Shown: piece after piece, positions 8,801-39,847 of the stretch
How positions within the stretch are numbered: the stretch's first letter is position 1
Layout of the letters: every line of letters starts with the position of its first letter
From: Candidatus Woesebacteria bacterium UBA5073
GTDB taxonomy: Bacteria > Patescibacteriota > Microgenomatia > UBA8517
Direction: 5' to 3'
Length of the DNA stretch: 64,000 nucleotides
Assembly (NCBI GenBank): GCA_002415845.1
Contig: DIAR01000010.1
Coordinates: 12,920 to 76,919 of the forward strand
Notes under the pieces: generated by a model
What the model was told of the DNA's origin: nothing
What the model saw: only the letters and a program-made list of their open reading frames with translations
Database searches by the model: none
Made by a program: the position numbers and the translations under genes

Positions 8801-9563
8801 CATATTCTTCTTCGGATAAAACGGAAAGAACGGCTACATTCTTAACAATGGAGGTTAAATTTTCAAAAACCTGACCGGTTTTATCCAAAGTGCTCTTTTC
8901 TTCCTCGGAAAGGGCCGTTTCTTTCTTCCTTAAATCCAAATCAACTTCCGACTTGGCCAGGGCCAATTGTTCTTTGTCTTTAATTTTGGCCGTAATTTTT
9001 TCTTTGGCTTCCTTTGATTCCGTTCCCAAAATCTCTTTGCGGGTTTTGAACTCTTCGTTGATTTCGGTAAATCTTTCGTCACAAACTTTTTGTAGGGCTT
9101 TAATGGTTTCTTTTCTCTTCTCTTCATCAACGGCCGTAACCAAATAACGGGCAAAATAAATAACCTGCTCGATGGCTCTGGGCGGAATACCCAAAATCAA
9201 AGAAATCTTGGAAGGTGCTCCTTTGAAAAACCAAACATGGGCAACCGGGGTGGCTAAGGTAATATGCCCCATTCTTTCCCGTCTGACTCTGGATTGAGTT
9301 ACCTCAACACCGCATTTATCACAAACCACTCCCTTATATCTGATCCTTTTGTATTTGCCGCAGTAACATTCCCAATCCTTGGTCGGACCAAAGATGCGTT
9401 CATCAAAAAGACCGTCTTTTTCCGGCTTTAAGGTTCGGTAATTAATTGTTTCCGGTTTGGTTACCTCACCACGCGACCAGGCCCTGATATCCTCCGGGGA
9501 GGCCAAGGTAATAACCAAACTCTTAAAATCGGCTAATGTTTTCAAATCTGATAATGGTTCCAT
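5835..9563 (-). CDS. rpoC: DNA-directed RNA polymerase subunit beta-prime
   Basis: 1242 aa. Zn-binding [27 protein letters not shown] catalytic motif, trigger loop and bridge helix are present. The start lies 2 nt after the rpoB stop (TAA-AT-ATG). Confidence 0.97.
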
Positions 9564-9565
9564 AT

Positions 9566-12500
9566 TTATTCAGCTTTCTCTGCAACGACTGGTTCTTCAA
9601 TTTCCATCGGACCTTCCGATTTTACCAGTTCTTCAGTGGCAATGATTTCAGCACCCGCAGCGACGGCTAATTCCTGCCCTTTTTCCACGTTTTCTTCATC
9701 TTCTTTGGCAACCACGGCTCCTTTGGCATCAACCAAAAGACCCAAAGAGTTTAATTCTCTGATCAAAACCTTAAAAGATTCCGGAACGGTGGCTTCAGGA
9801 ATATCCACACCTTTAACAATTGACTCGAAAGCTTTGGCCCGGCCTAAGACATCGTCTGATTTAATGGTCAACATTTCCTGCAAAATATAAGGGGCACGGT
9901 GTGCTTCCAAGGCCCAGACTTCCATTTCTCCGAGTCTTTGACCTCCCATTTGAGCTTTTCCGCCCAACGGCTGTTGAGTAACCAAAGAGTATGGACCGGT
10001 TGAACGGGCGTGAGTTTTATCTTCAACCATGTGGATAAGCTTCATGATGTAACCAATTCCGACAACTGTTTCTTCCTTAAAAGGTTCTCCGGTTCGGCCG
10101 TCAATCAACCTGGTCTTTCCGGATACCGGCAACCCGGCCTTTTTAAGTTGGTCGGAAATTAAATCTTCGGGAAGCTTGTCAAAAACCGGCAAACCGCCCT
10201 TTTCGTTCCCTTTGGATAAAGCCCAACCCAAGTGACACTCTAAAAGTTGTCCCAGGTTCATACGAGCCAAAACGGATAAGGGAGAAATAATAATATCAAT
10301 CGGTGTTCCGTCTTCCATATAAGGCATATTGGCCAGAGGCATAATCTTGGCGATAACGCCTTTATTGCCATGTCTGCCGGCGACTTTGTCTCCGACGGTA
10401 ATCTTTCTCATTTGGGCAACTCTGACAATCACTTTTTTGATAACTCCGGGGCCCAGCTCATCACCATTGTCTTTATCCAAAATCCGAACATCAACCACAA
10501 TACCCTTCTCACCATGAGGAATTCGAAGCGAAGTGTCTCTGACTTCCCTGGCTTTTTCACCGAAAATGGCTCTCAAAAGTCGCTCTTCAGAGGTTAATTC
10601 CGTTTCCCCTTTGGGAGCAATTTTTCCAACCAAAATATCATTTGGTCCGACTTCGGCACCGACAACGACAATTCCGTCTTCAGCTAAATTAGATAGCTCT
10701 GTTTCGGCTACATTGGGAATATCCCGGGTCAGTTCTTCCGGACCCAGCTTGGTATCAACGACATCGGCTTCGTATTCTTCAATATGAATTGAGGTTAAAA
10801 GGTCATCTTTAACCAACCTGTCCGAAACCATAATGGCGTCTTCAAAACCATATCCACTGTAGGACATATAACCGATTACCATGTTTCGGCCTAAAGAAAG
10901 CTCTCCGCCTTCAATAGCCGGTCCGTCGGCCAAAATATCGCCTTCTTTAACTTTTTGTCCTTCGGCCACGGTGGTTTTTTGGTTATAGCAGGTTGAATGG
11001 GCGGTTCTTTTGAATTTAGTCAAATGATAAACTTCGGTTTTGCCGTCGTCTTTAACTTCCGTATCTTCATAAGTCACATCATCCGTCTTTTTATCCAATT
11101 TAACTTCAATTCTTTCTCCGTCGGCAAAGACAACTTTTCCGGCGTGTCTGGCGGTTGTTACCCGACCCATCCCTTTGGCAATTTCGCTTTCAATACCTGT
11201 TCCAACCACCGGTGATTCAGGATTAACCAAAGGTACCGATTGACATTGCATGTTCGAACCCATTAAAGCTCGGTTACCTTCGTCGTGTGAGAGGAAAGGA
11301 ATAAGGGAAGCCGAAGCTCCAACCACCTGTCTCGGGGTAACATCGATATAGTCGATTAAATCGGCCGGCCCTTCGGTAAAAACACCCTTGTAACGGAAAG
11401 GAACTCTTTCGTCCAAAACCATACCGTCCGCATCAATGTTGATACCGGAATGGGTAATATGGAAATTTTCCTCATCGTCGGCTGCCAAGTAAACAATATC
11501 ATCCAAAATCTTAACCGAGGTCTTTTTGCCTTTTTGGATCTTTTCGACTTTGCGATAAGGGGTTTCGATAAAACCGAATTCATTAACCTTGGCATAAAGA
11601 GCCAAATAAGTAACCAAACCGATATTCGGTCCTTCGGGGGATCTGACCGGATCGATTTTACCGTATTGGGATGAATTAACGTCACGGATGGAGAATGAGG
11701 CTCTTTCCCGATTGATTCCGCCCTGTCCCAAAACCGAAACACGTCTTAAGTTGTCGATTTCCGATAAGGGATTAGTGTCGTCCAAAATGGTCGACAGCTG
11801 ATTTGAACGGAAAAATTCGTTTAAGGAAGCAATCAAAGGCCTGGCATTAATCAAATTAGCAGGTAGTGGTTTATCATCGGGTGAAATAAGGCTCATCTTT
11901 TCCTTAACCGATCTCTCCAACCTTAAAAGTCCGATTCTGAAAGCGTTAACAGCCACTAATTCTCCGACTCTTCTCAATCTTCGGTTGGCCAAATGATCAA
12001 TGTCGTCAACCCTGCCAATACCGTTTTGAAGTCCAATTAAGTATTTAAGGGTTTCGATAATGTCCTGTTTGGTCAAAATCCAGGTTGATTTCTCGTTCGG
12101 AAGAGTTAAGGATAGTCTTTTGTTAATCTTATATCTGCCAACTTTACCCAAATCATAACGCCTGGAATCAAAAAAGAGGGAATCAAAAAGGCTTTCGGCA
12201 TTTTCTAAAATAGCCGGTTCCCCGGGGCGCATCTTTCGGTAAATTTCCAAAATAGCGTCTTCCTGGCCTTTGGATGAATCTTTCGTGATAGTGGCGTTAA
12301 TGTATTTATGTTGGGCATCTTTATCGACATCTTTAAAGTAATTTAAAAGTTCACTGTCCGATTCAACACCCATGGCCCGAAGAAGGGCGGTAGCCGAGAC
12401 TTTTCTTTTTCTGTCGATTCTGGCGGCAATAACATCATTCCTGCCAACTTCAAATTCAAGCCAGGAACCATGAAGGGGTCTAACTTCTGCTTTATAAAGA

Positions 12501-12955
12501 ATCCGGCCGGATGACGGATCAAGCTCACCGGAAAAATAAACGCCAGGACTTCTGACGATTTGGTTGATAACGGCTCTTTCGATGCCGTTAACAATAAAGG
12601 TTCCTTTTGAGGTCATTTGCGGCAAATCACCCATAAAGACTTCTTGTTCGACTTCTTTACCGGTTTTTTTGTTGATTAATGTGGCTTGAATCTTGAGGGG
12701 AGAGGAAAAGTTAATACCTTTATCTTGAGCAATTCTGGGGGAAATTGAAGGTTCTCCAAGGGTATGTTTGCCTAAAATTAATTGCCAGTTTTTGCCGGTA
12801 AAATCATCAATTGGGGAAATATTAACCAATTCCTGGGCAATACCTTCAGTTAAAAACCAATTCCAAGACTCCCTTTGAACAAAGGAAAGGTCAAGTTTGG
12901 GTAAGTTTTTTTCTACTTTTCCGAAATTGATTCTGGCTTGGGTTTTTACCGACAT
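9566..12955 (-). CDS. rpoB: DNA-directed RNA polymerase subunit beta
   Basis: 1129 aa. Conserved rpoB blocks (GDKVAGRHGNKGV, NMQRQAVPL-like region, and others). Confidence 0.97.
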   Translation of the reverse strand: MSVKTQARINFGKVEKNLPKLDLSFVQRESWNWFLTEGIAQELVNISPIDDFTGKNWQLILGKHTLGEPSISPRIAQDKGINFSSPLKIQATLINKKTGKEVEQEVFMGDLPQMTSKGTFIVNGIERAVINQIVRSPGVYFSGELDPSSGRILYKAEVRPLHGSWLEFEVGRNDVIAARIDRKRKVSATALLRAMGVESDSELLNYFKDVDKDAQHKYINATITKDSSKGQEDAILEIYRKMRPGEPAILENAESLFDSLFFDSRRYDLGKVGRYKINKRLSLTLPNEKSTWILTKQDIIETLKYLIGLQNGIGRVDDIDHLANRRLRRVGELVAVNAFRIGLLRLERSVKEKMSLISPDDKPLPANLINARPLIASLNEFFRSNQLSTILDDTNPLSEIDNLRRVSVLGQGGINRERASFSIRDVNSSQYGKIDPVRSPEGPNIGLVTYLALYAKVNEFGFIETPYRKVEKIQKGKKTSVKILDDIVYLAADDEENFHITHSGINIDADGMVLDERVPFRYKGVFTEGPADLIDYIDVTPRQVVGASASLIPFLSHDEGNRALMGSNMQCQSVPLVNPESPVVGTGIESEIAKGMGRVTTARHAGKVVFADGERIEVKLDKKTDDVTYEDTEVKDDGKTEVYHLTKFKRTAHSTCYNQKTTVAEGQKVKEGDILADGPAIEGGELSLGRNMVIGYMSYSGYGFEDAIMVSDRLVKDDLLTSIHIEEYEADVVDTKLGPEELTRDIPNVAETELSNLAEDGIVVVGAEVGPNDILVGKIAPKGETELTSEERLLRAIFGEKAREVRDTSLRIPHGEKGIVVDVRILDKDNGDELGPGVIKKVIVRVAQMRKITVGDKVAGRHGNKGVIAKIMPLANMPYMEDGTPIDIIISPLSVLARMNLGQLLECHLGWALSKGNEKGGLPVFDKLPEDLISDQLKKAGLPVSGKTRLIDGRTGEPFKEETVVGIGYIMKLIHMVEDKTHARSTGPYSLVTQQPLGGKAQMGGQRLGEMEVWALEAHRAPYILQEMLTIKSDDVLGRAKAFESIVKGVDIPEATVPESFKVLIRELNSLGLLVDAKGAVVAKEDEENVEKGQELAVAAGAEIIATEELVKSEGPMEIEEPVVAEKAE

Positions 12956-13065
12956 CTTAAATTCATAGAAAATTCCCGCGGATAGACGCGGGGCGAGCGT
13001 AACAATGAGTACGCCTAAGCAGGGATTATATCTAAGTCACCTGCCTTGTCAAGCAGTAATTTTTC

Positions 13066-14064
13066 CTACTTTCCGATATATTTTCCAACGTTAAGGTTGT
13101 GTTCTTCCAGGGTTTTGGCATAGTGGATTACCCCTTTGGTATCATGGAGATAATAAAGATAATTAGAGTCTTCAGGATAAACGGCGGCTTTTATTGAAGA
13201 AAGGCCGGGATTACAGATCGGAGCCGGCGGTAAACCTTTAACCTTATAAGTATTAAAGGGTGAGCTGAATTGTCGGTCGCCCAAAAGAATGGTTGGCCAC
13301 CACTGGCAACCAATCGTTGTGGCTTTGCACCTTAAGTTGGCCAGCACATATTGAACAGAAGCGTCTACCTGTAGGGGCATCCCCAGCTTGATCCTACTAT
13401 ATAGTATGCCGGCCACGACCGGTCTTTCCGCATTTCCCCGGCTTTCCCTCTCCACCAAAGAAGCCATTGTCACAACCTGGCTTAAATCGTAATCAGATGA
13501 GGCAATATCATTTTTAACCTTATCGTCAACCCTTTTATCAAAAGTGTTAAGCATCATCTTAACAACAGCCGAAGCGGAAGCGTTTTTCGGAAAAAGGTAG
13601 GTATCGGGAAATAAATAACCTTCCTTACCGGATGAAGCCGTCAAGAACTCTTTTCTAAAAAGTTCTTTTTCCATCTCTTTAATCTCCAAGCCGGCCACAA
13701 ACTTCTCCATGATTTCCTCACGTCTTAAGCCCTCAGGAACGGTAACCCAAACTTCCTCCGGTCCGTGAGTTAGCCTCTCGACAATTTTAGGAATGGAAAG
13801 ATTTGGTGAAAGGTTAAACTCCCCGGCAAAAAGTTTAGTTTGTTTTCCCACCAATTGTACGTAAATCTTAAAAACTAAAGGACTTTTGATAAGATTGGCT
13901 TTTTGCAGTTTGGTTCCTACCTGCAGGGCCGAAAGACCTTTTGGAATAACAACGGTTACAACTGCTTTTTCAGAGGATATGGGTTTTAAATTAAGATAGA
14001 AATAGACACCGCCAATCGCCAATAGCAAGAAAAAAGAAAAAAAGACAATTAAAATCCGTTTCAT
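13066..14064 (-). CDS. mltG: Endolytic murein transglycosylase MltG/YceG family
   Basis: 332 aa. N-terminal TM helix, then a YceG-like domain (GYLFPDTY, LVERES...). Sits in the conserved alaS-ruvX-mltG synteny. Confidence 0.85.
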   Translation of the reverse strand: MKRILIVFFSFFLLLAIGGVYFYLNLKPISSEKAVVTVVIPKGLSALQVGTKLQKANLIKSPLVFKIYVQLVGKQTKLFAGEFNLSPNLSIPKIVERLTHGPEEVWVTVPEGLRREEIMEKFVAGLEIKEMEKELFRKEFLTASSGKEGYLFPDTYLFPKNASASAVVKMMLNTFDKRVDDKVKNDIASSDYDLSQVVTMASLVERESRGNAERPVVAGILYSRIKLGMPLQVDASVQYVLANLRCKATTIGCQWWPTILLGDRQFSSPFNTYKVKGLPPAPICNPGLSSIKAAVYPEDSNYLYYLHDTKGVIHYAKTLEEHNLNVGKYIGK

Positions 14065-14070
14065 TAAGAT

Positions 14071-14271
14071 TTAGACTTCTTCGAGAAGAGCCCGTCGGTA
14101 CTTTTTGGTTTTGGTATCGTGGATAAAGATTCGGCCACAAGCACAAACAACTTTTTCTTCACCTTCACTTTTTTTCTCGGCCTTACCTTCACTTAACTCT
14201 TTGCCACAACCGACACAGCGGCCTTGCGACAAGAGCCAAGCTTGAATCGGAGCGATAACGTTTTTGAACAT
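14071..14271 (-). CDS. Small zinc-ribbon protein (hypothetical)
   Basis: 66 aa. Two CxxC-type pairs (CVGCGK ... CACGR). Lies between ruvX and mltG. Confidence 0.4.
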   Translation of the reverse strand: MFKNVIAPIQAWLLSQGRCVGCGKELSEGKAEKKSEGEEKVVCACGRIFIHDTKTKKYRRALLEEV

Positions 14272-14315
14272 AAGTCAGATTAGTATACCATAATGTTCTT
14301 TTGTCAAAAGTGTTA

Positions 14316-14696
14316 TTATTTTTCCAAATAATTCTGAAGCATCACCGAAGCTGCAAAAGCATCCTCAAGAGCCGTTCTTTTTTGTCTTTTCATCCCTGCC
14401 TCTTTGGATAATTGTTGTGCTTCTTGGGTTGAAAGTGTTTCGTCAAAATATTCAATCGGGATGGCAATTTCTTTTTTTAATTTTTCGGTAAATTGCTTGG
14501 TCTTTTCGGCTGTCTTTTCCTCCGAAAGGCCGATAATTATTTTTTCTATTTTGTCTTCGGTAATTATTTCCACCAGCCGTTCAACAAATTTATCCCAGGT
14601 TTCAAACCTGACTACGCCCAAAGGCTCGGCAATTTTGGAGGTAGCCATGGCCAAACCAATTTTTGCCTCACCGTAATCAATCCCTAAGATATTCAT
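14316..14696 (-). CDS. ruvX: Putative pre-16S rRNA nuclease / Holliday junction resolvase-like YqgF
   Basis: 126 aa. MNILGIDYGEAKIGLAM start and the RNase H-like fold pattern of YqgF/RuvX. Confidence 0.85.
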   Translation of the reverse strand: MNILGIDYGEAKIGLAMATSKIAEPLGVVRFETWDKFVERLVEIITEDKIEKIIIGLSEEKTAEKTKQFTEKLKKEIAIPIEYFDETLSTQEAQQLSKEAGMKRQKRTALEDAFAASVMLQNYLEK

Positions 14697-14697: not shown

Positions 14698-15360
14698 TTA
14701 ATCAGTATATATCCTGGCCCTGACGATTAATCTTTTTAATTTCCTCGGATCCCCAGGCGGAACACAGGTTACCAGAGTTAAAAAAGAATCGCTGGCATTT
14801 TGCTCCAAAACCTGAATATCGGTCGGAAGAACCTCAAACAGATCTTCAACTCTATATTTAAAAGTAATTCCATCGTAATTGAGAACAATATCATCACCTT
14901 TCTTTAAGGTCGGAATAGTCGAAAAAATGGAAATGTAATCCTTTGGATTATAAAAAATAGGCAGGATTGAATGACCAAAGATAACCGCATTACCTTTTTT
15001 CCCTGGCAGGGCAGTTCCTGGATATTGAATAAGGCTTTTGCCTAAATCATCGCCACCAATTGCCACCGTCGCATTGTCAATTTTAAGTTTTGGAATCGAA
15101 AGGGTATAAAAAGAAACATTGGAAGCATTAAACTCTGCCTGATCGGCTCCGCCCACAAACCAATTGCTGGCCCGGGTGTAATCAAGATTGTCATTTTCAA
15201 CAACGGCCTTATTTTCAACCTCTGGACTAATTAGTTTTGGGTATCTGACCTTAGAGGCAGTTTCATAACCAACAATGGGCAGAATCACGGCTGCCAGAAT
15301 TCCTAAACCCGAGAGGGCAAAAACAACGGCAAAAATACGAAAAAGGATTTTATTCTTCAT
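14698..15360 (-). CDS. Sortase-family transpeptidase
   Basis: 220 aa. N-terminal TM anchor. Catalytic His region (AVIFGHS) and active-site TLVTC motif (TLxTC). The start lies 3 nt after the upstream gene's stop. Confidence 0.75.
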   Translation of the reverse strand: MKNKILFRIFAVVFALSGLGILAAVILPIVGYETASKVRYPKLISPEVENKAVVENDNLDYTRASNWFVGGADQAEFNASNVSFYTLSIPKLKIDNATVAIGGDDLGKSLIQYPGTALPGKKGNAVIFGHSILPIFYNPKDYISIFSTIPTLKKGDDIVLNYDGITFKYRVEDLFEVLPTDIQVLEQNASDSFLTLVTCVPPGDPRKLKRLIVRARIYTD

Positions 15361-15363
15361 TAA

Positions 15364-17568
15364 TTATCTTTCGGCTGAAACAATCACGGTGATATTTTTC
15401 AAAACCCGAGGCATGGTTTTTAATTTACCGGGGAAGCTGGGTTTTATTTTAATATTGGCTCTGGTATATCCGGCAACAGCCGTGGCCAAATAAGGATCAA
15501 TTAGGGCCGGATATTTACCCAAAACACTACTTGTTATTTCATCAACCTTCACCTCAGGCAAAAGATTGACACTAAGAATTGTTGTTAGCTCGTAAACACC
15601 TTCTTCCCCTTTAACTAACTCATATTCCGTATCGATTTGCCCCTCTTTAAGAGCATAACCGGTTGGAATTTTACTGTTCAAAGCTTTTTTGGCCAGTTCA
15701 AACATATCGGTCTTGGCAACGGAAACACCGGAAACCGAAACTTTTAAGGATAATTTTAAATTGGTTGCTTCATCGCCAACCTTAGCGCTAAAAACTTTAC
15801 TGACAACCTCGGGTACAAAAGTGGCATTAATTAAAATCCGATCATCGGCTATTTGCTGACCTAAACTCTTAATCGCTTTTTCGGTCAATTCATTGGTTAA
15901 TTCTTTTTCCAACTTGGCCTGATCCTCAGAAGAGACGGAGGGAATTTCCCGGCTTGAACCTCCGGAAAAATTCTGGGTAGTAAGAGCATCAACTTCGCTT
16001 TTCGGATAGTTACCGATTTTAAAAACTTCATTTGCTCCCAGATTATATTCGGAGCCGATATCATAGGCAGCCACATCAACACTGCCCTCACCCGGCGTGC
16101 TGGGCGACAGTGCCGCCGAGACGGAAGCACTGGAAGTAGTGGTAAATTTCAAATCGGAAGCTGAATAAAGAATTGTTCCGGCCGGAAGATTGATAACCGC
16201 CGCTGTTCCGTTTTGGATTTTGACACTGCCTTTGGCTTTTTCTCCAATTGTCTTTGTTCCGGAAGTACTGGTTGTTTTTTCACCCGACTCTTCGGAGGTA
16301 TAGAGTTTTCCAGCCAAAAGACTGCCGTCAAAATCCGACTGGCTTTCGTTGATGTCAACCGAAAGGGTTAAATTTTCTTCCAAAATTTTGGGTGAAACAA
16401 AAATTTCCAGGGTGGCTTTGGGAATAAACCACCAGAAAAGAAAACCACCAACCAGAAAAACAACGGCTGCAATTAAGAGAGCAATTGTTGGTTTTTTCTT
16501 CACTACCCCTCCCAATCTTCTGTTTTCAACAATATTTTTTTTCTTAAAAGAAATCGGGAAGGCCGGTAGTTTTATCTTTTTCCAAAAAGCCAATTTCGAC
16601 AATATACCCGAAGGTTGGGTAGCAGTCGCCACTGGTTGAGACTGAGGTTGCTGGGGTACTTCTCCAATTGGCTCTGCTTTTGGTTTTTCGGTTATGTCTT
16701 CGTCAACCACAAAACCTAAATCTTCCGGGTGGACATCGGTCTCGGGAACTTGAACGTTGGCTGTTTCTTCCGGATAGGCTTCCATCTTTTCTTCTTCTTT
16801 CTTCACCCCTTCAACCTGAGAAATATTAGACATTTCGGAAGCCCCCGCCAGGGCAGTTGCCACTACTTTTTTATCGGCTTCAATGATTTCAATCTTGGGA
16901 GTATGTAAAAATTTAATCTTTTCATTTTCGTTCCAGGAAGCGGAAAGCAGGTTTTGCCTTATCTCCTCCAACTCTCCTCCCCGACCGTTATAAATTAAAA
17001 ACCTTGACGGCAGTGTTTCTCCGGTTACAAAACGGGAAAGGCCTTCAACCACATCGTCATAAACGGAAAGACTCCTTTGAACTGAAGCCGTACCAACCAA
17101 GTTGCCCAATTTAAAAACAGCCAATTCCAAATTTTCGCTACCGACTTCCAAAACAACTGCACTTAAAGGAGAGCCTTCTTCGGCTTTCATCAGGTGAGCT
17201 ATGGCTTCCGGCAGGACAACAAAGCCGGTTGGTTCCAGTGACAGTTCGGTACAGATTTTTTTAACCTGCTCCAAAAACTCGGGTTTAATCTGACCGTCGG
17301 TTACCCAAAAAGGAGGAACACCAAAAACCGTTTTTGATGGTTCCCCTACTTCTTCTGGTAAATTTTGAATGGCGGCCGACAAAACAGTGTCTGACGCAGA
17401 AATTAAATCATCCTCCGTTTCCCAAGGAGTGGCAGGAGAAACGGCCACCATTTCCGCCTTTTCGTTTTCAATTTTCCAAACACCGGCCTGAATCCAACCG
17501 GTTTCAATTACTAGTGCCCAATAATGTTCTTGGGCAGTACCTTTCGATAAAATACTTTTTAAATCCAT
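15364..17568 (-). CDS. Large single-pass membrane protein: N-terminal actin-fold (FtsA/PilM-like) cytoplasmic domain, one TM helix, about 350-aa extracytoplasmic domain
   Basis: 734 aa. The N-terminus (ALVIETGWIQAGVWKIE ... AVVLEVGSENLELAVFKLG) has the two glycine-rich phosphate-loop-like segments of the actin-fold (ASKHA) superfamily. The TM helix is IALLIAAVVFLVGGFLFWWFI, followed by a Ser/Thr-rich extracytoplasmic region. No recognisable C-terminal sorting signal. Confidence 0.35.
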   Translation of the reverse strand: MDLKSILSKGTAQEHYWALVIETGWIQAGVWKIENEKAEMVAVSPATPWETEDDLISASDTVLSAAIQNLPEEVGEPSKTVFGVPPFWVTDGQIKPEFLEQVKKICTELSLEPTGFVVLPEAIAHLMKAEEGSPLSAVVLEVGSENLELAVFKLGNLVGTASVQRSLSVYDDVVEGLSRFVTGETLPSRFLIYNGRGGELEEIRQNLLSASWNENEKIKFLHTPKIEIIEADKKVVATALAGASEMSNISQVEGVKKEEEKMEAYPEETANVQVPETDVHPEDLGFVVDEDITEKPKAEPIGEVPQQPQSQPVATATQPSGILSKLAFWKKIKLPAFPISFKKKNIVENRRLGGVVKKKPTIALLIAAVVFLVGGFLFWWFIPKATLEIFVSPKILEENLTLSVDINESQSDFDGSLLAGKLYTSEESGEKTTSTSGTKTIGEKAKGSVKIQNGTAAVINLPAGTILYSASDLKFTTTSSASVSAALSPSTPGEGSVDVAAYDIGSEYNLGANEVFKIGNYPKSEVDALTTQNFSGGSSREIPSVSSEDQAKLEKELTNELTEKAIKSLGQQIADDRILINATFVPEVVSKVFSAKVGDEATNLKLSLKVSVSGVSVAKTDMFELAKKALNSKIPTGYALKEGQIDTEYELVKGEEGVYELTTILSVNLLPEVKVDEITSSVLGKYPALIDPYLATAVAGYTRANIKIKPSFPGKLKTMPRVLKNITVIVSAER

Positions 17569-17583: not shown

Positions 17584-19341
17584 TTATTCTTTGGCAATGT
17601 AAATTCTGACTACCCCACCGCCAATTTTCTCCTGTTTAATTATTCTAACACGCCCGATTTCGGACGTATCTTCAACATGCGGTCCGCCACACACCTCTTT
17701 GGAGAAAAAGTCGGTGTTGGAATTGCCGATTGTATACACTTTAACCTTCTCTCCATATTTTTCACCAAAGAAGGCCAAAGCGCCTTTTTCCTTGGCTTCT
17801 TTAAGACTCATGGTTTCTACCTTAACAGGTAATTTTTTGGTAATTTGCTCGTTTATTAAATCGGAAACGGCTTTTAACTGCTCTTCGGTTAACTTTTCCG
17901 GATGGGAAAAATCAAATCTAAGCCGTTCGGAGGTAATATTGGAGCCTTTTTGCGAAATATGATTTCCCAATACTTTCCTTAAAGCCGCATGCAGTAAATG
18001 AGTTGTCGTATGAAATTGAGTTACTTCCTCCGACGCATCGGACAAACCGCCCTTAAACATGCCGGCCGAAGCTGTCTTGGATAGATTTTTGTGTTTGGCA
18101 AACTCTTCGGCAAAAACTTTTCGATTAATTTTCTGTCCCCGATCCAGCGCAATTTCTTCGGTTAATTCCAATGGAAAACCATAAGTTTCGTATAAGAAGA
18201 AAGCGTTTTTACCATCCAGCTCACCTATCTTTTCAATTTCTTTTAAACCCTTTTCCAGTGTCTGACTAAATTTATTCTCTTCTTCCTTAATTACAGCAAT
18301 AATCTCTTTTTCTTTTTCCTTTAAGGTTGGGTAGGCTTTTTTATAAGAATTAATAACCGCTTGAGCCACTTTCTCCAAGAATGGTTTGGCAATTTTTAAC
18401 TTTTTACCCCAGCGGACCGCCCTTCTTATTAATCTTCTTAACACATAGCCCTGAAGTTTATTGCCGGGAATTACCCCTTCAGCCGCTAAAAAAACGGAAG
18501 CTCTGATATGATCGGCAATAATCCGGAAAGCTTTAGTCTCGTCTTCATAATCCTTGCCTGAAATTTCTTTGATGGCCAAGATTATTTCACCCCATAAATC
18601 CTTAACTAAATAATCATCCGCTAAACCATTTAAAACAGCCGTAGTCCGGTCAACGCCCATCCCCGTATCAACATTGTTTTGTTTTAGAGGAATGTATTTC
18701 CCCTCACTGGTTTTGGCATACTGCATAAAAACGTTGTTCCAGATTTCCACAAACCGACCGCAGTTATCACCCGGACGACAATTACTGCTACAACTTTTCT
18801 CCCCTGTCTCAAAGAAAATCTCCGTATCCGGTCCACAAGGTCCCGTTTCCCCTGCCGGCCCCCACCAGTTATCTTCTTTGGATAGAAAATAAATTCTTTT
18901 TTCCGGAATACCAAGCTTTTTCCAAATCTCGGCCGATTCCGTATCTTTGGGAGCATCTTCATCACCCGCAAAACAAGTTATGGCCAGTTTATCTTTATTA
19001 ATTTTTAAAACCTCGGTTAAAAACTCAAAAGAATTTTTGATTGATTCTTCCTTCCAATAATCACCCAACGACCAATTACCAAGCATCTCAAAAAAAGTGT
19101 GGTGGGTGGTATCACCAACTTCATCAATATCGTCCGTGCGAAGACAAATTTGGTTGTTAGTTAACCTTTTTCCGGCAGGATGCTCCTCACCTAAAAAGTA
19201 AGGGACCAGAGGGTGCATGCCGGCGGTCGTAAATAAAACCGTCGGATCGTTTTCCGGAATTAAAGAAGCTGAGGGAATGACACTATGGCCCTTTTCTTTA
19301 AAAAATTGCAAATACTTTTCAACCAACTCTCTTGAAGTCAT
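17584..19341 (-). CDS. alaS: Alanine--tRNA ligase, short form (catalytic, tRNA-recognition and editing domains; no C-Ala domain)
   Basis: 585 aa. N-terminal class II AlaRS core (FTTAGMHPLVPYF, HHTFFEMLGNWS). Editing-domain HTTTHLLHAAL and CGGPHV motifs. Confidence 0.9.
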   Translation of the reverse strand: MTSRELVEKYLQFFKEKGHSVIPSASLIPENDPTVLFTTAGMHPLVPYFLGEEHPAGKRLTNNQICLRTDDIDEVGDTTHHTFFEMLGNWSLGDYWKEESIKNSFEFLTEVLKINKDKLAITCFAGDEDAPKDTESAEIWKKLGIPEKRIYFLSKEDNWWGPAGETGPCGPDTEIFFETGEKSCSSNCRPGDNCGRFVEIWNNVFMQYAKTSEGKYIPLKQNNVDTGMGVDRTTAVLNGLADDYLVKDLWGEIILAIKEISGKDYEDETKAFRIIADHIRASVFLAAEGVIPGNKLQGYVLRRLIRRAVRWGKKLKIAKPFLEKVAQAVINSYKKAYPTLKEKEKEIIAVIKEEENKFSQTLEKGLKEIEKIGELDGKNAFFLYETYGFPLELTEEIALDRGQKINRKVFAEEFAKHKNLSKTASAGMFKGGLSDASEEVTQFHTTTHLLHAALRKVLGNHISQKGSNITSERLRFDFSHPEKLTEEQLKAVSDLINEQITKKLPVKVETMSLKEAKEKGALAFFGEKYGEKVKVYTIGNSNTDFFSKEVCGGPHVEDTSEIGRVRIIKQEKIGGGVVRIYIAKE

Positions 19342-19370: not shown

Positions 19371-19631
19371 TTATCCAGAAGAAGGTGGCGTAGGTTGGTC
19401 CTGGCCGTAAGATTCAAGCTTTTTATTCCTCTTTAAGATTTCCAAAACACCAGTTAACTTCTCGGGCCTTATCAATCCTCCACCCAAAATCGCATCTTCC
19501 AAAATTGAATTGAGTCTTTTAATGGCTTTTCTCAAGTCAACAATAATTAAAAAAACCTGAACACCAACGACCACCAAAAGAAAGGTCAGGGCGATAACAA
19601 CCACAATTAATAATGTTTGAACGTTATCCAT
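19371..19631 (-). CDS. Small membrane protein (hypothetical)
   Basis: 86 aa. One strongly hydrophobic helix (LLIVVVIALTFLLVVVGVQVFLIIV). Confidence 0.35.
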   Translation of the reverse strand: MDNVQTLLIVVVIALTFLLVVVGVQVFLIIVDLRKAIKRLNSILEDAILGGGLIRPEKLTGVLEILKRNKKLESYGQDQPTPPSSG

Positions 19632-19636: not shown

Positions 19637-20260
19637 TTAAAGTTCAGGCCTTATTGTACGCTTTAAAGTAGTTTCTTTTCCAGACCGAGAAACAGCTTTA
19701 ACGACAATTTCAGTTGTTCCTTCATAAATCTGAATTTCGGTTTTAAATTGTCCTTCATCCTCAACCAAAACCGGCTGATTATTTACTTTTAAAACCACGT
19801 CCTGATCGGTTTTTCCCAAAACCCAAACATTACGGCTTCGAACCACTTCTCCCTCTTTGGGTTCAGTAATCTCTAGAGAAGGTGGTGAAACAAACTTTTT
19901 GTATTGATAACCCAGATAGCTAAAAACCAGAAGTAAAACCAAACTAATACCAACAACAAAAGTAATTTTTGGAGACCAGATAAACTTGTTAACCACATCC
20001 GGCTTCGGGTTAACCGAAAGATCTTTAGGCGGATAATCCCGCCTGAGAATGGCGGCCATTTGTTTTTCGTTTAAATCCAAAAACTTGGCAATGTTTTTAA
20101 CAAAACCTAAAACCACGGCAAAATCGGGTAAGGTCTGCCAATCGTTGTTTTCAAGACTTTCAATAAACTCCTTTTTTATCTTGGTCTCATCTTCAACTTT
20201 TGACAAAGAGAATCTTTTTTTCAAACGGGCTTCCTTTAAGTAGCTGCCGACGGTCTTCAT
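19637..20260 (-). CDS. RodZ-like HTH membrane protein
   Basis: 207 aa. N-terminal XRE/RodZ-type HTH (SLSKVEDETKIKKEFIESLENNDWQTLP), a central TM helix and a C-terminal beta-rich domain. Confidence 0.55.
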   Translation of the reverse strand: MKTVGSYLKEARLKKRFSLSKVEDETKIKKEFIESLENNDWQTLPDFAVVLGFVKNIAKFLDLNEKQMAAILRRDYPPKDLSVNPKPDVVNKFIWSPKITFVVGISLVLLLVFSYLGYQYKKFVSPPSLEITEPKEGEVVRSRNVWVLGKTDQDVVLKVNNQPVLVEDEGQFKTEIQIYEGTTEIVVKAVSRSGKETTLKRTIRPEL

Positions 20261-20273: not shown

Positions 20274-22376
20274 TTAGTTTAGTTCCGGTCCTTGGTTTGT
20301 TTTGGCGGATGAGGCAAAGAAATCTTCCGCATTTTTAATCATCACTTCTCTGGGTTTTGAGCCTTCAGCCGGACCAACCACACCGGCCGATTGCAGCTGG
20401 TCAATTAACCTAGCGGCTCTGGCATAGCCGATGGAAAGTCTTCTTTGTAAAAGTGAGGCTGAAGCCCTTTCGTATTGGCAAACTTCCCGAACCGCATCTT
20501 TAAAGAAGGGATCAATATCGCCGACTATTCCGGGAACAGCAGCCATACCGGATTTGGTCATCGTCGTCACCTCTTCGGTATATTGCGGCATAACGCCCTG
20601 GTTTTTAAGGAAGGCCACCAGTCCCGAAACTTCCTTGTCGGAAACAAAAGCGCCCTGAATTCTGACCGGCTTGGCCTGTTCCGGCGGCAGGAAAAGCATA
20701 TCACCTTTGCCTAAAAGTTTCTCTGCCCCTTGGGTATCCAAAATAACCCGTGAGTCAACCTGGGATGAAACGGCAAAAGCGATTCGGCAAGGAATGTTGG
20801 CTTTAATTAAACCGGTAATGACATCAACCGAAGGCCTCTGTGTGGCCAAAATCATATGAATTCCCGTCGCCCGGCTCATCTGGGCAATCCTCGTGATGGC
20901 ATCCTCAACTTCAACCGGAGAGAAAAGCATAATATCGGCCAACTCATCAATGAATAAAACAATGTAAGGCAAGGCCTGAAAACCGGACATTTCGTTATAG
21001 CCGTCAATGTTTCTGGCTCCGGCTTGAGCAAAGAGTTTATAGCGTCTGTCCATTTCGGCCAGAATCCATCGAAGAGCCGAAATAACTTTTTCCGGTTCGA
21101 CAATAACCGGCGTCAATAAATGCGGAATACCGTTGTAACCGGTCAGTTCAACTCTTTTCGGATCAACCAAAATTAATTTCACTTCGGAAGGCGAAGCCCT
21201 AAAAAGAAAAGAGTTTAAGAAAGCATTAATACAGACTGACTTGCCGGAGCCGGTTTGACCGGCAATCAAAACATGGGGCATTTTCCCGATATCGGCCACC
21301 ACTGGTTTTCCGGAAACATCCAACCCCAAAGAAACGGCCAACTTGGAACGATTGTTCTTCATCACTTCCGACTCCATCATCTTTTTTAGAGGCACAAATT
21401 CCGGAGCCCTGTTTGGCAGTTCAATTCCAACCAGTGCCCGGCCGGGAATGGGGGCTTCAATTCTGATTGTTCCGGTCGGAGCGGCAAGAGCTAAAGCCAA
21501 ATCTCTTTCCAGGGAAGTAATTTTGGAAAGCTTGGTCCCGAGAGCCACTTCCAGGGCATATTGGGTAACGGCCGGACCAAGATTAACCTCAACCACCCTG
21601 GCCGTAATACCAAAACTCTCCAGTGTTTTTTCAATAATGGCGGCATTGCCTTTGATATCACCCCTGTCGGCTTTACCCGATTCAACATCACTTAAGATGT
21701 CCAAGGGTGGATACTTCCACACTTTATCTTCTCCCGGAACATTACTGACCAATTTGGCCTCTAAAGCTTCTACGGCCACACTTGGTTTTCCACCTGGTTT
21801 AGGAGCTTGGTTTGGATAATTACTGCCACCCGAGACTTTCATTCCGCCTTTGGGCAGAATTTTCCCAAATCTTGCATCGCCAACTGAGTACTTCTTGACC
21901 TGACCAAAAAGAGAAATAAAGAAATTAATTACCTGTTCAAAAGAAGTATTAAAAAGAACAATCAAGCCGACAATTGATGTCCCAAGAAAAATGATGAAAG
22001 CACCGAAACCGGTGACCATTGAGGCAATCCCTTCCCAAGCCATCCTACCCACATTACCGGCCCGACCTAAGGTTGCAATGGAAATGAAAAACAATAAACT
22101 ACCCACCACCACATTGGGCTGGCTTAGGGGAATCTTTATTTTGGAAAGCATGAAGGCAAAAGAAAGAAAAACAAACGGGAAAAAAATAGTGGCCCAAGAG
22201 AAATTGGCCATCAGCAAATCGTTTAATTTAATTAAAGCCAAGCCTTGACGGGAAAAGGAAATAATAACTAAAGCAGCCAGGGCAAAAAAGAAAATTTGGA
22301 CAATGGAAAAAATAGTCGACTTCTTAAGTTTTAAATTAAATGCTCGTTTAACTAATTTTCTTTTCTTTCTTTGCAT
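20274..22376 (-). CDS. ftsK: DNA translocase FtsK/SpoIIIE
   Basis: 700 aa. N-terminal TM helices, Walker A LIAGQTGSGKSV, Walker B FIDELAD, C-terminal gamma winged-helix domain. Confidence 0.92.
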   Translation of the reverse strand: MQRKKRKLVKRAFNLKLKKSTIFSIVQIFFFALAALVIISFSRQGLALIKLNDLLMANFSWATIFFPFVFLSFAFMLSKIKIPLSQPNVVVGSLLFFISIATLGRAGNVGRMAWEGIASMVTGFGAFIIFLGTSIVGLIVLFNTSFEQVINFFISLFGQVKKYSVGDARFGKILPKGGMKVSGGSNYPNQAPKPGGKPSVAVEALEAKLVSNVPGEDKVWKYPPLDILSDVESGKADRGDIKGNAAIIEKTLESFGITARVVEVNLGPAVTQYALEVALGTKLSKITSLERDLALALAAPTGTIRIEAPIPGRALVGIELPNRAPEFVPLKKMMESEVMKNNRSKLAVSLGLDVSGKPVVADIGKMPHVLIAGQTGSGKSVCINAFLNSFLFRASPSEVKLILVDPKRVELTGYNGIPHLLTPVIVEPEKVISALRWILAEMDRRYKLFAQAGARNIDGYNEMSGFQALPYIVLFIDELADIMLFSPVEVEDAITRIAQMSRATGIHMILATQRPSVDVITGLIKANIPCRIAFAVSSQVDSRVILDTQGAEKLLGKGDMLFLPPEQAKPVRIQGAFVSDKEVSGLVAFLKNQGVMPQYTEEVTTMTKSGMAAVPGIVGDIDPFFKDAVREVCQYERASASLLQRRLSIGYARAARLIDQLQSAGVVGPAEGSKPREVMIKNAEDFFASSAKTNQGPELN

Positions 22377-36136: not shown

Positions 36137-37855
36137 TTAATCAGTGTCGCCTGTCGGTGGGGCTATCGGCTCTTCTTCTTTAGTCGAAATCGGCCCGACT
36201 TTTCGGGAAATGAAGCGTTTCATTAGATTAAAGAAAAAACCAACCTCTTTGGACTTTAACAAAACCGAAATGCCCAAATAAACGATTCCGCCCAGGATAA
36301 TAACAACAATTGTTAGGATTAAAAGGTTGGTGGTGTAGCGGGTATCCAAAACAAATTTCTCAAAATGGATATTCTCAATCCCTAAGCCACCCATAAAAGA
36401 AAGTCTTTTAACCCAAACCGAACGGTCAAAAAATTTCAGGATAAAAAACATGACCAAACCGGAACAAACCGAAGAAAAAATAACTTTTAAGATTTCTAAT
36501 AATTGTTTGGCAACTATCCCATCACCAACTCTTTTTAGAATTAAGCAAAACAGTGTGGTTGCCTGAATAAAAGAACCCAAGGTGAAAGCTGCCGCCAGTC
36601 CCCAAGCGGGAAGGTGAAAAACCCGAATGAGAACAAAGTCGGCAATGATGTTAACGGTAATGGCGGATAAAGAAATGATGACTGGCGTCTTGGTGTCATG
36701 CAGGGCATAAAAGGCTCTAGCCAATAAAGCGGAGGTGACCTGAAAGACAACTCCAACGGCAAAGGCTGATACAACCATCCCCGTTTGAACCGTCGCCTCC
36801 CAGGAAAAAAGGTCCGTTCCATAAATAAGTCTGACAATCGGAATTCTTAAAACAATCAAGGTAACGGCAATTGGAGTAACCAAAAAAACCATCTGATTGA
36901 GGGCATTAAAAAGGGTTTTTTTGAATTCCACCGGATTGTCGGCTTGTCTGGAAAGAGTCGGCAGGGCCGCTTTGGCAATTGAGGTTCCAAAGAGACCAAC
37001 CGGCAAAAGCTGGATTGAATTACCAAAAGTAAAAAAAGTATATGAGGCAGTGGAAATCATGGAAGCCAAGAAAAGTTCGACTGATTTGGCTACTTGTAAA
37101 AAGGACACTTCAATAATCCTAGGAAGTGCCAACTTCCCGATCTTTCTAACTTCATCTGTCAATTTTAAACTAAAATGAAAACGAAAACCGAGTTTAATCG
37201 CCAGGGGCAACTGAATTAAAAAGTGAAGACCGGCCCCAATCACCACGCCGTAAACCGGCGCCATCAAGCCATATTTGGGAGCAAAAAAGATGGTTCCCAA
37301 AATAATCCCCAAGTTATAAAAAAGAGGGGCAATAGCCGGAACCAGAAAGCGCCGCAAGGATTCCAACACGGCCGTCATGACATAGGAGATAACAAAAAAA
37401 CCCTGAGCCGCAAATAATAATCGGGTCATTAAAACAATCTTGTCCCGATGTTCCAAACTAAACCCCGGCGTCAAAATACCGTACAGCTGGTTGGCGAAAA
37501 CAATAATAACAACGGCCAGAACCAAAAAGATGAGCATCCCGATATTGGCCACCGTTGAAGCAATTTGCCAGGCTTCTTTCCGACCTTTTTTCAAAGCTCT
37601 GGTAAAAACCGGAATAAAGGCCGAAGAAAAAGTGCCGAAAATCAAAACCTCAAAAACCAGATCGGGTAAACGGAAGGCAGCAAAAAACAAAGACAAATCA
37701 CCGGGAACAAAAAAATGGGCCAGTGTTCTTTGCCTTACCAGGCCTAAAACTCGGGAGGCCACTACCATCAACATAATAATGGTGGCGGCTGATAAGACCG
37801 AAGACTGTTGGGAAAGAAAAATCTTTTTTCCTTTGTTAATAAGTTTATTGACCAT
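36137..37855 (-). CDS. murJ: Lipid II flippase MurJ/MviN
   Basis: 572 aa. Polytopic, with a typical MurJ N-terminus (LSAATIIMLMVVASRVLGLVRQRTLAHFF) and 14 predicted helices. Confidence 0.85.
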   Translation of the reverse strand: MVNKLINKGKKIFLSQQSSVLSAATIIMLMVVASRVLGLVRQRTLAHFFVPGDLSLFFAAFRLPDLVFEVLIFGTFSSAFIPVFTRALKKGRKEAWQIASTVANIGMLIFLVLAVVIIVFANQLYGILTPGFSLEHRDKIVLMTRLLFAAQGFFVISYVMTAVLESLRRFLVPAIAPLFYNLGIILGTIFFAPKYGLMAPVYGVVIGAGLHFLIQLPLAIKLGFRFHFSLKLTDEVRKIGKLALPRIIEVSFLQVAKSVELFLASMISTASYTFFTFGNSIQLLPVGLFGTSIAKAALPTLSRQADNPVEFKKTLFNALNQMVFLVTPIAVTLIVLRIPIVRLIYGTDLFSWEATVQTGMVVSAFAVGVVFQVTSALLARAFYALHDTKTPVIISLSAITVNIIADFVLIRVFHLPAWGLAAAFTLGSFIQATTLFCLILKRVGDGIVAKQLLEILKVIFSSVCSGLVMFFILKFFDRSVWVKRLSFMGGLGIENIHFEKFVLDTRYTTNLLILTIVVIILGGIVYLGISVLLKSKEVGFFFNLMKRFISRKVGPISTKEEEPIAPPTGDTD

Positions 37856-38282: not shown

Positions 38283-38858
38283 TTGATGGCTGCCCTTAAA
38301 AAAGTAATTAAAATTAATCTTTTACCCCAAGAAGAATTTGCCAAAAGTACTTTTGGGCGAATCTTAACTTGGGCCTTATCCGGTTTCAGAGTCATCGTTA
38401 TTGCCGTGGAACTGATAGTGATGGCGGCTTTCCTTTCCCGCTTTTGGCTCGACGCTAAAATTAACGATTTAAACGATGTTATCCGGCAAAAACAAGCTTT
38501 AATTTCTTCCCAAGGCGAGTTTGAAAAGAAATTCAGGGATATTCAAACCAGAATCACCATTTTTAGCGGAGCCAAAGCCATGGCTTCTACCCCCTCAACC
38601 GAACTGGAAAAAATTGCCGCTTTTCTGCCAATGGATGTTGCCCTTTCTTCATTTACCTTTAATGAAGGAAAGGTTCAGATAAAAGGTGTTGCCGGCAGTG
38701 AAATTTCGGTTGCCCAATTAATGGCCAATTTGGAAGGAACCAAGCAATACAAAGAGGTTCTTTTAACTTCCGTCGGCAATGACCCAAAAAATGAAGCCAT
38801 GATTACTTTTATCCTGGATTTAACACTGGGAACAACCGAACAAAAGAAAGGAACTTAA
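38283..38858 (+). CDS. pilN: Type IV pilus assembly protein PilN-like
   Basis: 191 aa. N-terminal KINLLPQEE motif characteristic of PilN, a single TM helix, a coiled-coil segment and a periplasmic domain. Confidence 0.5.
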   Translation: MMAALKKVIKINLLPQEEFAKSTFGRILTWALSGFRVIVIAVELIVMAAFLSRFWLDAKINDLNDVIRQKQALISSQGEFEKKFRDIQTRITIFSGAKAMASTPSTELEKIAAFLPMDVALSSFTFNEGKVQIKGVAGSEISVAQLMANLEGTKQYKEVLLTSVGNDPKNEAMITFILDLTLGTTEQKKGT

Positions 38859-38861
38859 AGA

Positions 38862-39514: not shown

Positions 39515-39847
39515 ATGCCCAAAAAACAAAAACCATTTTTTGTAAGAATTGTTATCCTTTCAACCGTCACGGCCATTGTCTGGGTTGGATCAACTATTTA
39601 TAAAACCGTTTCAAAAAAAGAGGAGCCGAACATTCCCGTCCAGATATTAGAACCCCTGACTCCGACTTTAGACAAAAAGGTACTTGACGAATTAGAGAAT
39701 CGGGTGTTTCTTGAAGAGAGCACAATCCCTGAAACAAGGGTTGAGGTTGGTGTTCAAGCAGCAACACCAAAACCGGTTGAAACGATTGCCCCGGAGGAAA
39801 CACCTGTGGCGACCGAATCAGGAGAAGAAGCAGGAGAAGAAATATGA
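39515..39847 (+). CDS. Small single-pass membrane protein, acidic Pro/Glu-rich C-terminus (hypothetical; PilP-like position)
   Basis: 110 aa. N-terminal TM helix (FFVRIVILSTVTAIVWVG). Overlaps the next gene by 4 nt. Confidence 0.35.
   Translation: MPKKQKPFFVRIVILSTVTAIVWVGSTIYKTVSKKEEPNIPVQILEPLTPTLDKKVLDELENRVFLEESTIPETRVEVGVQAATPKPVETIAPEETPVATESGEEAGEEI

Follow-up and report, generated by a model that had tools for sequence, protein, structure and literature searches.

Between alaS and ruvX in Candidatus Woesebacteria bacterium UBA5073 lie two genes, one for a sortase and one for a 734-aa protein, here called X, whose existing annotation reads 'hypothetical' or 'baseplate J/gp47 family protein' and nothing else. 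What kind of protein is X, and does it belong functionally to the sortase beside it? We analyzed a stretch of 64,000 nucleotides (the window), in which the genes of the block are arranged as follows:

17584..19341, minus strand: alaS in a short form of 585 aa, leading the putative operon (NCBIfam NF002436, E 4.5e-248)
15364..17568, minus strand: X (ORF), a 734-aa bitopic protein with an actin-fold domain, a linker, a TM helix and a baseplate-J-like ectodomain
14698..15360, minus strand: sortase (Pfam Sortase), 220 aa, with an N-terminal membrane anchor and a TLVTC motif, class unassigned
13066..14696, minus strand: downstream genes of the block, ruvX to mltG together
14316-14696, minus strand: ruvX (Pfam RuvX, E 3.8e-30)
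14071-14271, minus strand: zn66, a conserved 66-aa Cys4 protein between ruvX and mltG
13066-14064, minus strand: mltG (Pfam YceG, E 3.7e-78)

The preliminary description placed two genes between alaS and ruvX-mltG with gaps of 3 and 1 nt, and both points hold: Pfam and NCBIfam agree on the identities of alaS, ruvX and mltG, and the ORF coordinates leave 3 nt (TTA) between the X stop and the sortase ATG and 1 nt between the sortase stop and the ruvX ATG. It also called the genes co-translated; the spacing is indeed close, and co-translation is suggested by that spacing alone. Upstream, alaS ends 15 nt before the 734-aa ORF, and a promoter-like site that matches at 10/12 positions is located at 19377-19348, directly 5' of alaS. 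The order ruvX, zn66, mltG is kept in related loci, and alaS-X-srt-ruvX-zn66-mltG is predicted to be a compact, putative operon. The ORFs are real genes rather than chance frames, with hundreds of full-length homologues at 30-55% identity. Specifically, a word-index search returned 898 matches to X, with members of uniform length (about 700-800 aa), and the family comprises 2128 representative clusters (50% identity) at E<=1e-30; a protein identical to X is present in public data (P0001).

The AF2 model of X has a mean pLDDT of 79.8, and the protein is organized as follows:

16819..17535, minus strand: minimal ASKHA (actin-like) domain, cytoplasmic, aa 12-250
16498..16818, minus strand: linker, cytoplasmic, disordered (pLDDT 31-58) and poorly conserved, aa 251-357
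16696..16728, minus strand: conserved short linear motif PEDLGFVVDED in the linker, aa 281-291
16426..16494, minus strand: single transmembrane helix, aa 359-381, helical in the AF2 model, with the hydrophobic segment TIALLIAAVVFLVGGFLFWWFI
15367..16419, minus strand: extracytoplasmic domain, aa 384-734, made of a baseplate-J-like beta domain and, after it, alpha/beta modules resembling SIMPL/BP26 proteins
15946..16245, minus strand: Baseplate_J/baseplate wedge subunit sequence match, aa 442-541 (Pfam PF04865 and PHROG phrog_6)

A K/R-rich flank, KKKNIVENRRLGGVVKKKP, stands just before the hydrophobic segment on the cytoplasmic side of the TM helix, which gives X an N-in/C-out topology and agrees with its first description as a bitopic protein. 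The N-domain, earlier proposed to be FtsA/PilM-like, is indeed modeled with an actin fold of that type, and PilM is among the best structural matches. In this model, two RNase-H-like beta-beta-beta-alpha-beta-alpha-beta-alpha subdomains flank a cleft, as in ASKHA proteins, and the approximately 240 aa correspond to the 1A+2A core alone, without the FtsA/PilM subdomains 1C and 2B; about 212 core residues align structurally. The glycine loops attributed to the domain at the outset, on the other hand, are not intact. The PHOSPHATE-1 (DxG[T/S]), PHOSPHATE-2 (DxGGGT) and ADENOSINE (GG) motifs are not conserved: the phosphate-1 equivalent reads IE(P/T)GW, where distant clades have G or N instead of E22, the phosphate-2 equivalent reads VLGVGxxxLE, and the YDGKEGE glycines are not conserved family-wide. 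From these motifs we infer that ATP binding has been lost. Taken together, the model presents the N-domain as an actin fold of the FtsA/PilM/Hsp70 type that is reduced to a minimal form and whose nucleotide-binding motifs are degenerate. By sequence, Pfam gives no match to this domain in any of 34 X members and NCBIfam gives none; phmmer of X against the PDB returns nothing beyond weak glucosyltransferase and TRI-2 matches, and an X profile against the PDB returns spurious HIV gp41 repeat matches and a marginal FtsA match.

The linker that follows is first acidic, then Pro/Gln-rich and finally basic beside the membrane, with a column conservation of 0.06-0.33 and 24-48% gaps. Within this variable surrounding, G285 and F286 of the PEDLGFVVDED motif are >90% conserved among 368 family members, and the F is invariant in distant-clade alignments. 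The motif presumably binds a partner.

On the extracytoplasmic side, PF04865 matches X at E 2.6e-6 with 27.4 bits, above the cutoff of 21.1, covering profile positions 20-113 of 255, and phrog_6, 'baseplate wedge subunit', matches at E 8.1e-6; a precomputed PF04865 match is present in many X homologues. The X ectodomain contains a folded module related to baseplate wedge (J/gp47/gp6) proteins, which occur in phages and in contractile injection systems. The baseplate-like match spans about 100-130 aa of the 734-aa protein and covers about 130 of the roughly 350 ectodomain residues. This domain had been described as Ser/Thr-rich; a slight enrichment is there (19.8% versus 13.7% in the N-domain), in a domain that is folded and not of low complexity. 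Of the folds suggested for comparison, POTRA/FtsQ, PilN/O and SpoIID, none appears alike; the domain consists instead of the baseplate-J/wedge-like beta domain and the SIMPL-like modules.

The sortase matches Pfam Sortase (PF04203) at E 3.8e-23, and its nearest solved relatives at E 6e-10 to 1e-6. The triad H130/C199/R210 is invariant in 108-112 homologous loci, the TLVTC motif fits TLxTC, and the N-terminus is hydrophobic (ILFRIFAVVFALSGLGILAAVILPIV); judged from its sequence, the enzyme is catalytically intact and membrane-anchored. Among the NCBIfam sortase classes, class C (55.3 bits) and class E (48.2 bits) score best against cutoffs of 160, and no A-F cutoff is reached, so this genuine sortase stays unassigned to a class, as originally stated. 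The same window encodes Gram-positive-type wall genes (two FemAB, LCP and MurJ) and a 440-aa surface protein with a C-terminal tripartite signal that is conserved in 120 homologues. The sorting motif here is likely xP[D/E/V]SG + TM + KK. When C-terminal tripartite signals were scanned across X loci, this 440-aa protein was the sole match.

The pairing of X with the sortase, which we checked in related genomes as initially suggested, is found in nearly all of them. In 82 of 87 non-identical loci, drawn from GTDB species representatives and from contigs that carry homologues, a sortase lies <=400 nt downstream of X; about 16 pairs overlap, and the projected gap across homologues is -13 to 165 nt with a median of 17 nt. 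Among divergent loci from a metagenome scan, where X identity falls to 27-38% and rpoB identity to just 57-66%, all 28 with enough downstream sequence keep X-srt, some of them with no alaS detected upstream, and called genes of distant clades agree. Two loci depart from this pattern: in L058 ruvX directly follows X and the sortase is absent there, and in L053 a 4.3-kb insertion splits X from the sortase. Sortase substrates were sought in the insertions that break the block, and those of L053 and L021 carry just a 1440-aa cytosolic ORF and metabolic genes. The usual neighbors of X across loci are alaS, the sortase, ruvX, mltG and rpoB; the ftsK-to-rpoB neighborhood is entirely syntenic in the lineage, and the positional conservation of X equals that of core genes such as ruvX and mltG. 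X-srt is best read as an envelope gene pair specific to the Microgenomates lineage and inherited vertically, present in Woesebacteria and more distant relatives. In line with this, sortase is reported in nearly all Microgenomates but only sporadically in the rest of the CPR (PMC6744442), a pattern that matches the X distribution among named records. Adjacency by itself is nevertheless weak evidence of functional coupling, because the lineage keeps the block from alaS to mltG frozen as a whole. Literature searches (sortase with CPR/Patescibacteria/Woesebacteria; 'baseplate J' with sortase/Patescibacteria; sortase with actin-like) returned no description of the X family or of its pairing with a sortase.

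The architecture of X was at first held to be without precedent, which is incorrect. GspL of the T2SS and BfpC of type IVb pili are both bitopic: a single TM helix links an actin-like domain in the cytoplasm to a domain in the periplasm, a layout that PilM-PilN shows in split form (PMC4471445). GspL and BfpC act across the membrane as non-enzymatic adaptors, and their actin-like domain belongs to the ATPase superfamily but is atypical within it (PMC4471445). X resembles GspL/EpsL and BfpC in this bitopic layout. Distinct from FtsA, X has the 1A+2A core only, degenerate phosphate motifs, a large ectodomain and a true TM helix instead of an amphipathic tail, does not lie beside ftsZ, and has no Pfam FtsA/SHS2_FTSA match in 34 members. 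A further likeness is to housekeeping sortases with accessory membrane factors, in which a membrane-anchored His-Cys-Arg transpeptidase is likewise co-encoded with a membrane protein in bacteria with a Gram-positive-type wall. Actinobacterial SrtA with SafA is one such example; X, however, has 734 aa and several domains and bears no relation to SafA, which is small, and the likely motif here is xP[D/E/V]SG, not LPxTG.

Based on these comparisons, we tentatively propose, at a probability of roughly 0.4, that X and the sortase form a lineage-specific envelope pair in which X is a GspL/BfpC/PilM-PilN-like adaptor positioning or regulating the sortase. As a non-enzymatic transmembrane adaptor in the manner of GspL, BfpC or PilM-PilN, X would dock a cytoplasmic partner through its pseudo-actin domain and linker motif, and its ectodomain, built of folds that oligomerize in baseplates, may form an extracellular platform. 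At wall-synthesis sites, the platform would serve to position or regulate the housekeeping sortase expressed together with X, and there the enzyme would anchor surface proteins bearing the xP[D/E/V]SG + TM + KK signal. We counted in favor of the adaptor the architecture and folds, the degenerate motifs and the residues invariant throughout the family, the linkage, the invariant triad, the published sortase distribution, the wall genes, the sorting-signal protein and the GspL/BfpC precedent; against it, we counted that alaS and ruvX, functionally unrelated to sortase, are equally tightly linked, which allows for frozen synteny, and the exceptions L058 and L053. A bolder and distinctly improbable version holds that a domesticated phage-baseplate wedge domain, fused by way of a membrane anchor to a pseudo-actin domain, makes up a new extracellular ring or platform in Microgenomates that couples a cytoplasmic cue to sortase-catalyzed surface assembly. 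In that version the actin fold and the EDLGF motif would bind the source of the cue, for which the division/elongation machinery and a traffic ATPase are the candidates.

The alternative that survives best, still on the unlikely side, is that X is a lineage-specific division, elongation or wall-biogenesis protein that acts independently of the sortase, with their adjacency a matter of frozen operon synteny; the forms we named are a membrane-spanning FtsA-like tether and an MreC/RodZ-type organizer. The presence of ftsK, a RodZ-like HTH_25 protein and mltG nearby, the conservation of the whole block including the unrelated alaS and ruvX, and the separability of the X-sortase pair in L058 and L053 all suit this explanation. 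However, X aligns over about 212 core residues and no more, and lacks 1C and 2B, the subdomains that in FtsA serve late division protein recruitment and FtsZ binding. Additionally, X lies outside any dcw/ftsZ cluster, its spacing to the sortase is consistently tight, and the pair persists without a detected upstream alaS.

Considerably less probable is a pilus or pseudopilus role, in which X is a GspL/BfpC-type assembly-platform subunit whose actin-like domain docks a PilB-like traffic ATPase, whose ectodomain contacts pilins, and whose neighboring sortase processes or anchors the fiber. The architecture of X resembles that of GspL/BfpC, and in the window pilN (INLLP motif) and a pilO-like gene precede the sorting-signal surface protein and have no pilM immediately upstream of them. 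These pilN and pilO-like genes are nevertheless about 21 kb away, 0 of about 120 X loci have pilus or secretion genes alongside, and X lacks 1C, a subdomain that contributes to the groove for PilN binding. Moreover, a type IV pilus locus of Microgenomates is reported to include a canonical PilM (PMC7143001). The published work on the CPR Pam pilus does not involve X or its sortase.

That X is instead a substrate or acceptor of the sortase, its ectodomain being cleaved or cross-linked to the wall, is very unlikely: it has in its favor the tight gene pairing and the extracellular C-domain and nothing else, and it was rejected for want of a C-terminal sorting signal, as the X C-terminus has neither a hydrophobic segment nor a basic tail and its last residues (...NITVIVSAER) form a folded beta strand, neither LPxTG nor PxSG is conserved at the right position, and the canonical tripartite signal is on a different window protein. 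A prophage or contractile-injection-system baseplate remnant, as public annotation has it, is effectively refuted and was rejected by gene context and architecture, given that the match is limited to about 100-130 of 734 aa, that X, unlike baseplate J/gp47/gp6 proteins (PF04865, PHROG 6), is membrane-anchored, extracellular and fused to an actin fold, with no matched baseplate protein showing a TM helix and actin-fold domain, that no tail/baseplate module genes (gp25/W, gp48/I, hub, tube, sheath) lie beside X across the loci compared and no further phage/tail genes nearby, that the GC content of the locus is unremarkable, and that the housekeeping block is conserved in about 120 divergent genomes.

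The label 'baseplate J/gp47 family protein' is thus misleading for X, and a corrected annotation matters, since the current one could make pipelines miscall X loci as prophage. The X family is large and position-conserved, yet neither Pfam nor NCBIfam picks up its actin-fold domain, and X looks like a cellular housekeeping protein that has put a phage baseplate domain to new use. Within the CPR (Patescibacteria), Microgenomates form a large group of ultra-small bacteria, with no cultured member in the literature consulted, whose envelope biology is inferred almost wholly from genomes, and surface-protein anchoring is likely central to an attached or episymbiotic lifestyle. X as an actin-fold transmembrane adaptor paired with a near-universal sortase offers a testable hypothesis on how surface proteins are anchored in ultra-small cells. 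If the ring or platform version were true, X would be a core envelope machine specific to the CPR and the first transmembrane scaffold dedicated to a housekeeping sortase.

Every gene in this region of the window is encoded on the minus strand. In order of transcription, they are:

20274-22376, minus strand, ftsK
19637-20260, minus strand, RodZ-like HTH_25 membrane protein
19371-19631, minus strand, 86-aa membrane protein
17584-19341, minus strand, alaS, short form
15364-17568, minus strand, X, the 734-aa ORF of a bitopic protein
14698-15360, minus strand, sortase, 220 aa
14316-14696, minus strand, ruvX
14071-14271, minus strand, zn66, a 66-aa Cys4 protein
13066-14064, minus strand, mltG
following mltG, minus strand, rpoB and rpoC

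The junctions are as the preliminary description gave them, with 3 nt (TTA) between the X stop codon and the sortase ATG and 1 nt between the sortase stop codon and the ruvX ATG; the gap from alaS to X is 15 nt. A promoter-like site with 10/12 consensus matches adjoins alaS on its upstream side (19377-19348), and a perfect TTGACA-16-TATAAT lies between mltG and rpoB (13052-13025). These sites, which are consensus matches only and whose total count does not exceed the shuffled expectation, suggest that alaS-X-sortase-ruvX-zn66-mltG may be one transcription unit. The short, 585-aa alaS is an NCBIfam NF002436 equivalog that matches only positions 1-431 of 847 in the canonical TIGR00344 model, together with a SAD domain. 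The zn66 protein, which carries CxxC...CxC, is 57-83% identical (median 71%) across nearly all loci, exceeding the conservation of ruvX, mltG and X, and the 86-aa membrane protein is also highly conserved (median 72% identity within Woesebacteria); neither matched any family. Downstream of the perfect sigma-70 consensus that precedes rpoB, the rpoB leader contains a GC-rich hairpin together with a T-rich run (12992-12975; whole element 12975-13052, minus strand), a possible attenuator.

The AlphaFold2 model of X, built from a 38-sequence alignment, has a mean pLDDT of 79.8 and displays four distinct segments:

aa 12-250, confident, pLDDT about 80-92
aa 251-357, disordered, pLDDT 31-58
aa 359-381, helix
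aa 384-734, confident

Because the hydrophobic helix is preceded by the basic stretch KKKNIVENRRLGGVVKKKP, the N-domain is assigned to the cytoplasm and the C-domain to the cell exterior. Structural matches to the N-domain are listed at 15.5 for Hsp70 nucleotide-binding domains, 15.5 for PilM:PilN, 14.9 for E. coli FtsA and 14.1 for EutJ. The proposed FtsA/PilM-like actin fold therefore holds at the level of fold but not at that of sequence, where the domain goes unrecognised: Pfam searches found nothing in 34 members, and a profile search of the PDB returned only a marginal FtsA match (E 0.003). As read from sequence, the nucleotide-binding motifs are degenerate. Specifically, the phosphate-1 loop is IE(P/T)GW, with the acidic residue replaced by G or N in distant clades, and the phosphate-2 loop is VLGVGxxxLE, not DxGGGT. 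Additionally, GFVVLPEAIAH is similar to EPxAAA, the connect motif of the Hsp70/MreB/FtsA branch, and W31, D60, G83, W88, G115-F116-V117, G155, S166, D172, E175, P187, R189, W212, H222, P224 and E245 are invariant across the family (368 sequences). We infer that the N-domain is a non-catalytic "pseudo-actin" binding module. The only conserved feature of the otherwise variable linker is a short PEDLGF motif, a candidate docking peptide in which G285 and F286 are conserved in >90% of sequences.

The ectodomain, also modelled separately (pLDDT 84), matches Pfam Baseplate_J (PF04865) over aa 442-541 with 27.4 bits against a gathering score of 21.1, and PHROG 6 "baseplate wedge subunit" over the same residues (E 8e-6). 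POTRA, PilN/PilO, GspL/GspM and SpoIID folds are absent from its top 60 matches, and its supposed Ser/Thr richness amounts to a mild enrichment (Ser+Thr 19.8%). Public databases contain a protein identical to X, and close relatives there carry the names Woesebacteria, Microgenomates or Patescibacteria; NCBI annotates several as "baseplate J/gp47 family protein", a misleading name for this family. An exhaustive profile search returned 2128 representative clusters at E<=1e-30, of which the top 150 all span the full length, at about 700-800 aa bar a few shorter entries, and 9614 clusters at E<=1e-3, which probably include true phage baseplate proteins.

The window's ten proteins were placed by tblastn in 80 species-representative genome loci, in contigs for individual homologues and in 32 metagenome loci retrieved with a divergent clade as seed. 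Among the species-representative loci and homologue contigs taken together, a sortase lies <=400 nt downstream of X in 82/87 non-identical X-bearing loci, with a median projected gap of 17 nt and about 16 overlapping pairs. The pair is broken in only two of the loci compared: one (L053) has a 4.3-kb insertion (9204-13526, plus strand) that carries a 1440-aa cytosolic ORF, and the other, a 3-kb contig (L058), has ruvX directly after X and no sortase. In 3/87 loci the contig stops too early downstream of X to judge. In the divergent metagenome set, where X identity is 27-38% and rpoB identity only 57-66%, the pair is kept in 28/28 loci with enough downstream sequence, nearly always followed by ruvX-zn66-mltG. 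It is also kept where no alaS was detected upstream (e.g. L101, L117, L118, L120), so the linkage in related genomes on which the preliminary description depended is borne out. This adjacency supports probable co-expression of X and the sortase. The entire block is syntenically frozen in the lineage, and because alaS and ruvX, which have no functional relation to the sortase, are linked as tightly, adjacency only weakly argues for functional coupling. A role for X in division or elongation, independent of the sortase, is only a little less probable than the adaptor reading given below. Published work reports sortase in nearly all Microgenomates and only patchily in the rest of the CPR (PMC6744442), a distribution similar to the one that X appears to have among named records. 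Many public MAG records under the title "uncultured Gammaproteobacteria bacterium" (L011, L013, L014, L016 and about 25 more loci, CAY*/CAZ*) contain a Woesebacteria-type locus whose rpoB shares 72-82% identity with that of the window, and their organism label looks wrong.

The sortase matches Pfam Sortase (E 3.8e-23) and has a hydrophobic N-terminal anchor and a TLVTC motif. It falls below every NCBIfam class cutoff (class C 55 bits and class E 48 bits at best; cutoffs 160), and the closest solved structures are a mixture of sortases (E 6e-10 to 1e-6), two of which bear a class C label. Since H130, C199 and R210 are invariant across 108-112 homologous loci, the enzyme is almost certainly active. 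Further genes of the window concern the wall, a possible substrate and pilus-like proteins:

49593-54315, LCP (LytR-CpsA-Psr) gene and two adjacent FemAB-family genes
36137-37855, MurJ
38283-39512, plus strand, PilN gene (Pfam E 1.5e-12) and PilO-like ORF
39844-41166, plus strand, 440-aa surface protein with fn3, Big_13 and CarboxypepD_reg domains
41174-42778, plus strand, 534-aa Cys-rich repeat protein with an N-terminal TM helix

Together with a PMT-like glycosyltransferase, the FemAB, LCP and MurJ proteins indicate a wall of Gram-positive type, with the peptide cross-bridges that usually serve as sortase acceptor. The 440-aa protein ends in ...DIPESG-SLTPTLILSIMGVGAIAMALLFWKKAEY; xP[D/E/V]SG, then LTPT..LLSIMG.G, then W[K/R]K recurs in most of the 120 homologues listed and in nearly all 45 C-termini inspected. 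This motif, TM segment and basic tail have the tripartite shape of a sortase signal, and no NCBIfam model reaches its cutoff there; the protein is a candidate substrate and its C-terminus a candidate CPR-type sorting signal. It follows the PilN/PilO-like genes and precedes the 534-aa protein, which has long, internally repeated Cys-rich segments (CVN..SQTC...PCCEGQGTCQTTPYGKVCA.PTCTAGQTKCQAEGSS) and no Pfam or NCBIfam match. The PilN N-terminus has the PilM-binding KINLLP motif; no pilM lies directly upstream.

In layout, X is closest to GspL/BfpC, but it appears to lack the ferredoxin-like periplasmic domain of GspL/BfpC/PilM-type proteins and has no pilus or secretion genes nearby, and a pilus-platform role is improbable. 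FtsA and PilM are the closest structures to its N-domain, which has neither intact nucleotide-binding motifs nor 1C or 2B subdomains. Baseplate J/gp47 is the closest structure to part of the ectodomain, but no tail genes lie near X; the readings of X as a phage remnant or as a sortase substrate have little to recommend them. X falls short of membership in all these families alike, and we found no description of its family or of its pairing with a sortase in the literature; we rate it an actin-fold bitopic adaptor with an unprecedented ectodomain and genomic partner.

GspL, BfpC and PilM-PilN have been described as bitopic or two-part adaptors whose actin-like cytoplasmic domain links partners in the cytoplasm to a platform beyond the membrane (PMC4471445). 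The domain architecture, folds and topology of X are established, as are the intactness of the sortase and the near-universal co-location of the two within a compact gene array. By analogy, X may bind a partner in the cytoplasm through its pseudo-actin core and EDLGF motif. Its baseplate-wedge-like ectodomain, whose fold oligomerises in baseplates, would build a platform, and this platform would position or regulate the co-expressed sortase. We hold this adaptor reading as a whole tentatively, at a probability of roughly 0.4. X, a core gene in a major lineage of uncultivated bacteria, is striking in architecture and conservation; its current annotation misleads, and its function is one that we infer.
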